A stretch of DNA of 27,875 nt. Source: an uncultured Erysipelotrichaceae bacterium. GTDB lineage: Bacteria; Bacillota_I; Bacilli_A; Erysipelotrichales; Erysipelotrichaceae. This document shows, one piece after another, positions 21,375-22,988 of this stretch. Position 1 is the first letter of the stretch; each line of letters opens with the position of its first letter. Under the pieces are notes generated by a model. It saw nothing but the letters and a program-made list of their open reading frames with translations. It was not told where the DNA came from and did not search any database. A program made the translations under genes and the position numbers. The DNA is taken from NCBI GenBank assembly GCA_964457525.1, contig CAYWGS010000010.1:1-27875 (forward strand), in the 5' to 3' direction.

Positions 21375-22340
21375 ATGTCATTTAACTTTAATATCGGAAA
21401 TCTAAATAAACCTAAAGTAGACCTCGATCAAATATTCGATTTTGTAAGTATTGGTGGTGGGCCTGCTAGTTATAATGCGAGTTTATACGCAAAACGCAAA
21501 GGATTAAATGTATTAATTATTGCGAAGAAACCGGGTGGACAGTTATTGAATACATCATCGGTAGATAATTACCTAGGATTTAAAGAATTATCGGGTGAAG
21601 CATTGTATGAACAATTTCATGAACATGTAAAGACATTGGATATCAGTGAAATCAATGATCAGAATGTGATTCATATCGATAAGAATAAAGACGTATTCTA
21701 CCTAAGTTTAGAGGATGGAAGTGTTGTGAAGAGTAAAACAATACTAATAGCGACAGGATCCAATCCACGTAAGTTAGGCGTTAAGGGTGAAGTTGAATTC
21801 TCAAATGCAGGAGTTGCTTATTGTGCCATCTGTGATGCGCCACTCTTCAAAGGTAAAGATGTGATTATTGCAGGGGGTGGAAACTCTGCAGTAGAAGCTG
21901 CGATTGATGTCGCAAAAATCGCAAGACACGTAACACTGGTTCATCGCAGTCAATTAAGAGCAGATAAGATCTTAGTTGATAAGATGAATGAACAAGCGAA
22001 TATCAAAGTCTATTTGGAATCACAGATTCTAGAAATAGAAGGTGATACAAAGATGCGTTCAATTCGTGTATTAGATAAACAAAGTAATACAGAATTTAGA
22101 TTAGAAGCAGATGGTATCTTTATTGAAATCGGTAATATACCTAATTCTGATTTAGTTAAGAATTTAGTAGAACTCAATGATCGTAACGAAATCATTGTGA
22201 ATCATAAACAAGAAACATCCTTGGAAGGATGTTACAGCGCAGGTGATGTAACAAATACACCGTATAAACAAATTATTATCGCAACGGCAGAAGGTGCTAA
22301 AGCAGCACTCGCAGCCAATGAATATATCAATACCCATTAG
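21375..22340 (+). CDS. AhpF C-terminal-module-like FAD/NAD(P)H disulfide reductase (thioredoxin-reductase fold)
   Basis: [18 protein letters not shown]...[13 protein letters not shown], redox centre [29 protein letters not shown], and [23 protein letters not shown]. From memory, this is closely collinear with the reductase half of AhpF. Confidence 0.8.
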   Translation: [321 protein letters not shown]

Positions 22341-22352
22341 GAGGAATAAACA

Positions 22353-22988
22353 ATGGAAAAATTATTAAATGCAGATGTGCAAAAACAACTAAAACAAGTA
22401 TTTGAAGAATTGGTTAATCCAGTTACCATGGTTCTTTTCACAGAAGATGATTGTGAAAGTTGTGAACCAACCTTAAGTTTATTAACAGAAATCGCTGAAC
22501 TCAGTGATAAATTAAATTTACGAGTTTACGACATCAATTCAGATGAAGCGAAGAAGTATGACATTGAAATGGCCCCAAGCTTTGTATTACTCGATCACAA
22601 AGATGAATATCACCGTGTAAAATTCAATGGTATTCCTGCAGGTCATGAAATCAACTCTTTCATTTCCGCACTTATCGAAATGTCTGGTGCTGAAAGTGAA
22701 GTTCCTGCAGAACTCTTAGAACGTATTCAAAAGATTGATAAACCAATTAATATTAAGGTCTTCGTTACCTTGTCTTGTCCACATTGCCCAGGTGCAGTTC
22801 AGAAGGCACATAAACTTGCAATGTTAAACAAGAATGTGACAGGCGAAATGATTGAAGCACAGACCTTCTATGAACTTTCTGAGAAGTTCAATGTAACAGG
22901 TGTTCCTAAAATCATTATCAATGATTCACTTGAACTCGTAGGTAATCAACCAATCGAACGTTTCTTAGAACAAATCGAAAGCTTATAA
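22353..22988 (+). CDS. AhpF N-terminal-domain-like / protein-disulfide-oxidoreductase-like double thioredoxin-fold protein
   Basis: LLTEIAELSDKL, PSFVLL, GIPAGHEINSF and LSCPHCPGAVQKAHKLAMLN match the AhpF NTD pattern. There is a second CxxC (CESC) in the first fold, 211 aa. A GGAGGA RBS precedes it. Confidence 0.75.
   Translation: MEKLLNADVQKQLKQVFEELVNPVTMVLFTEDDCESCEPTLSLLTEIAELSDKLNLRVYDINSDEAKKYDIEMAPSFVLLDHKDEYHRVKFNGIPAGHEINSFISALIEMSGAESEVPAELLERIQKIDKPINIKVFVTLSCPHCPGAVQKAHKLAMLNKNVTGEMIEAQTFYELSEKFNVTGVPKIIINDSLELVGNQPIERFLEQIESL

Follow-up and report, generated by a model that had tools for sequence, protein, structure and literature searches.

A thioredoxin reductase-type flavoprotein paired with a protein disulfide oxidoreductase in an Erysipelotrichaceae bacterium, and a transposase-like protein as its candidate regulator

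The first 27,875 nucleotides of contig CAYWGS010000010.1 (GenBank assembly GCA_964457525.1), from an uncultured Erysipelotrichaceae bacterium, contain two adjacent genes that encode a flavoprotein of the low-Mr thioredoxin reductase type and a double-thioredoxin-fold protein of the protein disulfide oxidoreductase (PDO) family. We refer to the whole of this stretch as the window, and to the reductase as RED; coordinates are those of the window. An earlier reading made from the sequence alone had taken the pair for the flavoprotein AhpF split into two genes in swapped order. We have analyzed the pair, its relatives and its surroundings, and consider that it is very probably an unfused thioredoxin reductase (TrxR)/PDO two-component cytoplasmic disulfide reductase, as found in Thermotoga maritima and in thermophilic archaea. 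The elements of the pair are as follows.

21326..21354, + strand: promoter-like site TTGAAA-17-TATACT, 5′ of the RED gene (consensus match 10/12)
21375..22340, + strand: reductase gene (RED), 321 aa, low-Mr thioredoxin-reductase-type flavoprotein
21822..21833, + strand: redox disulfide CAIC of RED, aa 150-153
21942..21959, + strand: HRSQLR of RED, pyridine-nucleotide 2′-phosphate site of the NADPH type (HRxxxR), placed by alignment
22353..22988, + strand: PDO gene, 211 aa, double-thioredoxin-fold protein of the PDO family
22452..22463, + strand: CESC, the CxxC of the PDO N-terminal fold, aa 34-37
22776..22787, + strand: CPHC, the CxxC of the PDO C-terminal fold, aa 142-145, probable primary catalytic site
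22987..23008, + strand: terminator-like hairpin followed by a T-run, abutting the PDO stop codon

Both open reading frames lie on the + strand where the sequence-only reading had placed them, the CESC is at the position it gave, and every peptide string that it quoted was found. The genes are separated by a gap of just 12 nt, and an AGGAGG precedes the PDO ATG. The TTGAAA-17-TATACT site ranks top among the promoter-like sites in a 4.5-kb scan; promoter assignments here and throughout are consensus matches only. We take the RED and PDO genes to be one self-contained bicistronic operon.

To judge from its profile and structure matches the 211-aa protein is a member of the PDO family. It scores 247.4 bits with NCBIfam TIGR02187, above the cut-off of 185, with residues 8-209 aligned to positions 3-207 of the 209 in the profile, and this bears out the likeness to PDOs that had been suspected. 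Pfam places a Thioredoxin domain on residues 14-104 and Thioredoxin_3 on residues 133-208. The protein aligns over its full length with the PDO of P. furiosus (1a8l, 4.7e-37), and full-length matches are also found to 1j08, 2ywm and 2hls. It further matches the AhpF N-terminal domain (1hyu, 7.6e-24) and 6il7 (7.4e-30); the latter, together with 5h29, we take to be the double-thioredoxin domain of E. faecalis AhpF. In the alignments the CPHC falls in the fold that is redox-active in PDO and AhpF, and the C-terminal site is CPHC in 77 of 78 relatives. The N-terminal CxxC is equally well preserved (77 of 78) with a variable dipeptide, and Cys34 and Cys37 are invariant in alignment A1. A near-invariant CPHC and a variable N-terminal dipeptide fit a primary C-terminal and a secondary N-terminal site. 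The second CxxC, in the first fold, had been noticed at the outset, and it is indeed absent from canonical AhpF, the N-terminal domain of which has a single redox pair (PMC12288474, a Fusobacterium review).

RED matches Pfam Pyr_redox_2 at 2.3e-46. With NCBIfam AhpF (TIGR03140) it scores 343 bits on positions 206-512 (E 2.6e-102), short of the cut-off of 502.9, and with TRX_reduct (TIGR01292) it scores 316.8 bits while covering positions 2-300 of 300, a narrow miss of the equivalog cut-off of 343.45. The structures that it matches best are the reductase half of E. coli AhpF (1fl2, 8.8e-69) and two TrxRs (7jyp, 6.5e-67, and 4zn0, 5.2e-59), the first of which we take to be from Thermotogae; RED is ~45% identical to each of the three, and the match to 7jyp includes the N-terminal extension. 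RED is thus about equally close to the AhpF reductase half and to archaeal and Thermotogae TrxR. A distance tree, calculated without support values, sets it beside the E. coli AhpF reductase half. By these profile scores RED is best described as an AhpF/TrxR intermediate that falls below both curated cut-offs.

The motifs of RED include GGGPAS for FAD, GGGNSA for NAD(P)H, the CAIC disulfide and an AhpF-like motif at the C-terminus. The CAIC aligns with CPHC of AhpF and with CAAC and CAIC of TrxRs, and 68 of 69 family members retain a CxxC there. At the nucleotide site the HRSQLR aligns with HRRDHLK of 4zn0, LEFAPEMK of AhpF and VQNLPYLT of 7jyp, and HRSxxR(A/G)D is present in 42 of the 43 relatives that could be parsed. 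HRRxxxR is the established 2′-phosphate motif of low-Mr TrxR, of which RED has two of the three arginines, and because of this resemblance RED is predicted to use NADPH. The call is uncertain, as the motif is short of one arginine and the T. maritima enzyme prefers NADH (PMC8395237). It also contrasts with the label 'NADH-dependent peroxiredoxin subunit F' that relatives carry at JGI.

How general is this gene pair? A genome scan with one genome per species confirmed 519 PDO relatives, of which the best 80 loci were kept (cited here by L numbers), and synteny was counted in the 74 of these with enough upstream sequence. In 67 of the 74 the PDO gene is immediately preceded by the RED gene, both on one strand. 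Loci with the pair span the Erysipelotrichaceae, Acholeplasmatales, Izemoplasmatales, Haloplasmataceae, Proteiniclasticum and Vallitaleaceae; PDO relatives occur in Proteiniclasticum ruminis, Paracholeplasma vituli and Anaerotalea alkaliphila, and in many metagenome-assembled genomes (MAGs) of Erysipelotrichaceae and Acholeplasmataceae. Hundreds of stand-alone homologues are found, of ~320 aa for RED and ~212 aa for PDO, and no fused protein is present among the top 120 matches for RED or the top 120 for PDO. The adjacency of the genes in these 67 loci supports the predicted reduction of the PDO by thioredoxin reductase. In one relative, L020 (~8976..9984 of the otherwise complete chromosome OW818668.1), the reductase gene is split by a frameshift; the PDO gene is intact there, as is the upstream gene that we describe below.

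Is the pair then an AhpF in two parts? The two proteins are homologous to the halves of AhpF, as the alignments of RED with 1fl2 and of PDO with 1hyu confirm, and in canonical AhpF (Salmonella, E. coli) the CxxC of the flavoprotein likewise hands electrons to a double-thioredoxin module, at the CxxC of its second fold. But canonical AhpF is a single polypeptide with the double-thioredoxin module first, it has no CxxC in the first fold and a nucleotide site of the NADH type, and it is encoded beside ahpC. With TIGR03140 the PDO protein scores 129 bits on positions 1-197 (E 1.4e-37), so that like RED it lies below the AhpF cut-off. RED has the NADPH-type HRSxxR and not the NADH-type LEF site of AhpF, and the two-gene form is the conserved state, with hundreds of stand-alone homologues. 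On these grounds the description as a split AhpF is not supported. Nor is the swapped order new, because the same order is known in fused form, in TIGR03143 (an AhpF homologue) and in the AhpF of F. nucleatum (FN1984), where the reductase comes first and the double-thioredoxin module second; the recent review that points out this arrangement in F. nucleatum concludes that AhpF has formed twice (PMC12288474). Aligned with TIGR03143, RED falls on positions 2-309 with 230 bits and PDO on positions 346-554, the C-terminal half, with 172 bits. These reversed-order homologues (TIGR03143, FN1984, 5h29/6il7) share the sequence of modules with the pair, but they are fused (~555 aa) and encoded beside ahpC, and the scores of 230 and 172 bits compare with a cut-off of 687.65.

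The pair has closer counterparts among unfused systems. In T. maritima the physiological oxidant of TrxR is the 25.2-kDa Grx-1 (PMC8395237), and there as here a separate low-Mr TrxR-type flavoprotein accompanies a stand-alone double-fold protein of ~25 kDa. The present pair differs from that of T. maritima in its NADPH-type HRSxxR site, where the T. maritima enzyme prefers NADH, in having cultured non-thermophiles among its hosts, and in its candidate upstream regulator. The PDOs of archaea and Aquifex (1a8l of P. furiosus, 1j08 of P. horikoshii, 2ywm/2ayt of A. aeolicus, and that of S. solfataricus) similarly have two folds with a CxxC in each, and the protein described here aligns with them over its full length at E 1e-34 to 1e-37. 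Their donor is TrxR and the C-terminal site dominates their reductase activity; Sulfolobus uses NADPH, TrxR and PDO for the regeneration of its Bcp peroxiredoxins, and the key site for this is the C-terminal CxxC (PMC7465337). The differences from these PDOs are a length of 211 against ~226 aa, and CPHC in place of CPYC or CGYC. PDO has been called exclusive to disulfide-rich thermophiles (PMC1188242, PMC7465337), a restriction that does not apply to the present clade, which is found in Erysipelotrichaceae, Acholeplasmatales, Proteiniclasticum and similar groups. We regard AhpF, in either domain order, as the fused relative of the TrxR/PDO pair.

In the electron path that we propose, RED would draw on a pyridine nucleotide, which we predict to be NADPH, and pass the electrons by way of FAD to the CAIC disulfide. 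From there they would be transferred to the PDO, with the C-terminal CPHC as the main acceptor and the N-terminal CESC as a second, less constrained site. The PDO would in turn reduce disulfides of client proteins, which may include thiol peroxidases, and would not be dedicated to an AhpC.

Clustering of all the proteins encoded in the flanks revealed a third conserved gene, located immediately upstream of the pair in 46-48 loci. It is flanked by a 16-nt inverted repeat, and the elements of this region are as follows.

20629..20644, − strand: left inverted copy of the repeat, 2 mismatches, 4 nt before the start codon of the Y1-like gene
20649..21323, + strand: Y1-like gene, 224 aa, RAYT/TIRYT-like Y1 domain and C-terminal helix-turn-helix (HTH), candidate operon regulator
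21332..21347, + strand: right copy of the repeat, TTCAAG-N3-TGTCCCC, 0 mismatches, in the RED promoter spacer, candidate operator

The Y1-like protein has a weak match to Pfam Y1_Tnp (1.4e-5). Foldseek comparison of its AlphaFold model (AF2, pLDDT 78) returns 4er8, the E. coli REP-associated tyrosine transposase (RAYT), at the top, followed by TnpA structures of IS200, IS608 and ISDra2. Catalytic residues are missing. Where an HUH motif would be expected the sequence is R-F-Q and conserved histidines are lacking; a Y---NP motif or helix is likewise absent. The last 70 residues make up an HTH similar to sigma-70 region 4 and Bac_DnaA_C, with Sigma70_r4 matching 7 of 12 members and Bac_DnaA_C 6 of 12. 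An exhaustive profile search gave 72 representative clusters (50% identity) at E 1e-30 or better, 67 of which are devoid of both catalytic motifs; this includes every one of ranks 1-52. The nearest relatives that are active have LMxNHxHL and YIHxNP, and they are longer. All four distant homologues that were looked up (31-41% identity) are encoded directly upstream of a reductase gene, and the PDO gene follows the reductase wherever the contig permits.

The nearest described group is the TIRYTs, RAYT subclass 2.1, whose proteins end in an HTH or DnaA_C domain and whose genes lie between inverted repeats that include GGGGWSAS, and all of those described keep the HUH motif and the catalytic tyrosine (PMC3733652, PMC6006769). 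The Y1-like gene resembles a TIRYT/TIRtron in its Y1 fold, its C-terminal HTH and its flanking inverted repeats that start GGGGAC. It is unlike them in that its family has neither HUH nor tyrosine, has a median length of 228 aa where theirs is 268, and is tied to the neighbourhood of a single operon.

The placing of the repeats is what makes the protein a candidate regulator, since the right copy fills the spacer of the RED promoter, occupying 16 of its 17 bases. The repeat arms (20627-20643 and 21333-21349) are 82% complementary. Of 46 loci with a Y1-like gene, 44 have the motif TTCAAG-N3-YGTCCC(C) a short way 5′ of the reductase or PDO gene, and in 35 loci an inverted copy is present upstream of the Y1-like gene, overlapping the -35 of its promoter. 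In most relatives this left copy reads GGGGACR-N3-CTTGAA, with the TTGAA serving as the -35. A relaxed form of the pattern has 94 matches in 2.4 Mb, both strands counted, nearly all at the two positions flanking the Y1-like gene; over the same 2.4 Mb none falls in loci without that gene. The locus L009 keeps the motif before its reductase gene with no Y1-like gene adjacent, and in the same MAG a Y1-like gene, with genes for a PDO, a thioredoxin-like protein and a rhodanese, is located on another contig (L014), which suggests that the protein acts in trans. The presence of the motif in both orientations argues against a structure in the 5′-untranslated region or a promoter for a special sigma factor. 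As an RNA element the motif was rejected, Rfam at its gathering threshold returning only three tRNAs in the window. No convincing sigma-70 -10 box was found after the motif in Clostridia-type loci, so the geometry expected of a repressor site is clear only for the Erysipelotrichaceae. In the window (20600..20648) and its closest relatives the left repeat is 4-20 nt before the Y1-like start, after the rhodanese terminator. The Y1-like genes of L001 and L002 look leaderless (TGATATAAT, 6 nt, ATG), and the window seems to carry a short deletion at this place.

We propose, with about an even chance of being right, that the Y1-like protein is a domesticated, inactive transposase of the RAYT/TIRYT lineage that has become an autoregulated repressor, its former terminal inverted repeats now serving as operators. 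Expression of the operon would then be controlled by stress, the HTH protein acting through the repeats in the RED promoter spacer and at its own 5′ end. Cys53 and Cys126 of the Y1-like protein are conserved among the closer relatives and invariant in alignment A2, and they could make it a thiol-based stress sensor.

Such a role would parallel that of a two-cysteine repressor found in other hosts. At 16 Acholeplasmatales and Izemoplasmatales loci (L029, L042, L047, L048, L052, L055, L057, L059, L064, L065, L070-L072, L074, L077 and L080) a gene just upstream of the reductase encodes an 85-aa protein of the CsoR/RcnR/FrmR family (PF02583, 4.7e-16). It has exactly two cysteines, Cys3 and Cys31, and none of the histidine or cysteine positions that act as metal ligands. 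The palindrome TACCC-N4-GGGTA overlaps the -10 in 15 of the 16, while L077 has a longer-spaced variant. The TTCAAG-N3-YGTCCC(C) motif occurs in none of these CsoR-type loci. We considered whether this protein might be a fragment of the Y1-like protein, but there is no similarity and it belongs to the CsoR family; its best NCBIfam match is FrmR and not CstR. The occurrence of two unrelated regulators before one operon, both with conserved cysteines, points to induction by thiol-reactive stress, for which an oxidant, sulfane sulfur or an aldehyde would be candidate signals.

Two further neighbours are relevant to what the pair might reduce.

20233..20598, + strand: rhodanese lipoprotein, recurrent neighbour of the module (Pfam Rhodanese, 6e-21)
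23028..23924: aldo/keto reductase, confirmed as a neighbour

The sequence-only reading had taken these genes as a hint of a thiol/sulfur-stress neighbourhood. The rhodanese half of this is supported by its recurrence, near the pair in 17 loci and in two arrangements: it precedes the module, or it follows on the downstream side with a small CxxC thioredoxin-like protein in between. The aldo/keto reductase half is not, that gene being common to only six close relatives. The report that there is no ahpC or other peroxiredoxin gene in the window stands. A Pfam/NCBIfam scan of most open reading frames of at least 90 aa gave no AhpC/TSA match, and tblastn of the window with AhpC, Bcp and Tpx queries gave none either, although very divergent peroxiredoxins could be missed with these queries. 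AhpC is absent from the window and from all 85 related loci. The only peroxiredoxin adjoining the pair among the 85 is a Tpx-type thiol peroxidase (~41% identical to E. coli Tpx) encoded directly after the PDO gene in L047 (5446..5907) and L057 (2196..2657). Peroxiredoxins are thus plausible clients of the pair, and not its defining partner.

Some related loci are organized differently. In L008, L010, L011, L014 and L044 a reductase gene is missing and the PDO gene comes right after the Y1-like gene; in most of these it is followed by genes for a small CxxC thioredoxin-like protein and a rhodanese. L014 and the reductase-PDO locus L009 belong to one MAG, CAXXCK01, which so has two PDO paralogues. 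A ~200-aa membrane protein with two Cys-x2-Cys-Pro motifs and no Pfam match is encoded 3′ of the PDO gene in 13 loci in total, of Proteiniclasticum and others (including L009, L036, L051, L054, L058, L062, L066 and L078); it could be a membrane client or partner.

Several observations weigh against the reading as a TrxR/PDO disulfide reductase. RED stays below the equivalog cut-off for TrxR and its AhpF score is the higher one, its HRSxxR is without one of the three arginines of E. coli TrxR, and in 83 of the 85 related loci there is no peroxiredoxin within ~10 kb. CPHC is also the dipeptide of DsbA, and so the C-terminal site of the PDO could be fairly oxidising. A rival reading takes the pair for a functional AhpF in two pieces, a dedicated donor for alkyl hydroperoxide reduction that would have no real client except a peroxiredoxin with its gene at another place in the genome. 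RED carries AhpF-type signatures, AhpF provides its best NCBIfam and PDB matches, and both the unsupported distance tree and the JGI label on relatives lean the same way; moreover a Tpx gene follows the PDO gene in two loci, and the TrxR/PDO of Sulfolobus has peroxiredoxins as clients. Yet a dedicated donor is hard to reconcile with the lack of a peroxiredoxin in the window and in 83 of the 85 related loci, with the retention of an N-terminal CxxC that AhpF does not have, or with a nucleotide site of the NADPH type rather than the AhpF type, and it is a rhodanese and a small thioredoxin-like protein, rather than AhpC, that recur beside the pair. We consider it possible but on the whole unlikely. 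That the split is no more than an artefact, a frameshift, assembly error or pseudogene of a fused gene of the TIGR03143 type, can practically be dismissed, even though the gene order is that of the TIGR03143 domains and L020 has a frameshifted reductase gene. The sequence-only reading had itself raised an assembly frameshift as a check on the split. The RED-upstream-of-PDO order in 67 of 74 loci from many families, as separate reading frames with their own ribosome-binding sites, rules this out together with the hundreds of independent stand-alone homologues and the lack of a fused protein in the top 120 matches for either protein; the TIGR03143 scores are also lower than those on TrxR/AhpF and PDO.

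The neighbouring genes raise the question of whether the module might serve mainly against reactive sulfur species, by reducing persulfides or polysulfides on proteins or on the rhodanese. A rhodanese is kept near the pair in 17 loci despite rearrangement, sometimes with the small CxxC thioredoxin-like protein. The CsoR family includes the persulfide sensor CstR, and the Acholeplasmatales and Izemoplasmatales operon is headed by a two-cysteine member of that family without metal ligands and with a typical TACCC-N4-GGGTA operator. We nevertheless find this doubtful, given that the association with rhodanese is confined to the Erysipelotrichaceae, that the CsoR-like protein is closer to FrmR than to CstR, and that the flanks showed neither a sulfide:quinone oxidoreductase nor a persulfide dioxygenase. 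For the upstream gene the corresponding question is whether it is simply a decaying TIRtron-type mobile element with no regulatory role, lying with its repeats beside the operon. TIRYT genes are normally flanked by GGGGWSAS inverted repeats (PMC3733652, PMC6006769), and the repeats here, GGGGACA and GGGGACG, fit this at 7 of 8 positions. A decaying element would not be expected, however, to be conserved as a protein without HUH and tyrosine across at least 67 clusters at 50% identity, or to hold the same position in 46-48 loci of several orders and in four out of four distant homologues; nor would it explain why the right repeat is located precisely in a promoter spacer, or why L009 retains the motif when the Y1-like gene is on another contig (L014) of the same MAG. 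We judge mere decay to be improbable.

The preferred reading, an unfused TrxR/PDO disulfide reductase, describes an enzyme pair that is already known in kind and not a novel architecture; it is the regulatory module that could be new. The claim that PDO is restricted to thermophiles is contradicted by the frequency of the unfused TrxR/PDO in mesophilic Erysipelotrichaceae, Acholeplasma-like bacteria and some Clostridia: a PDO relative is encoded in at least 519 species-level genomes, and of the best 80 loci 74 were informative, 67 of them with the pair. If the assignment is right, PDO would be a mainstream component of thiol reduction in mesophilic Erysipelotrichaceae, wall-less Bacillota and some Clostridia. 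The pair also offers a natural, separable model for electron transfer of the AhpF type, and Proteiniclasticum ruminis and Paracholeplasma vituli are cultured hosts. Should the proposal for the Y1-like gene prove correct, bacteria would offer a clear example of a transposase turned regulator, with the ends of the element as its operators, and this would have a larger potential value than the enzyme pair.

Elsewhere in the window there is a cluster of three tRNA genes at 25476..25737 (Val-GAC, Arg-CCG and Ala-GGC). Two tandem pairs of paralogues are present, of GntR/UTRA-type regulator genes at 369..1852 and of inosine-uridine nucleoside hydrolase genes at 10673..12516. The hydrolase genes adjoin those of a nucleoside ABC transporter of the PnrA type (5865..10636), of amidohydrolases and of a PfkB kinase, and together these look like a nucleoside-salvage island.

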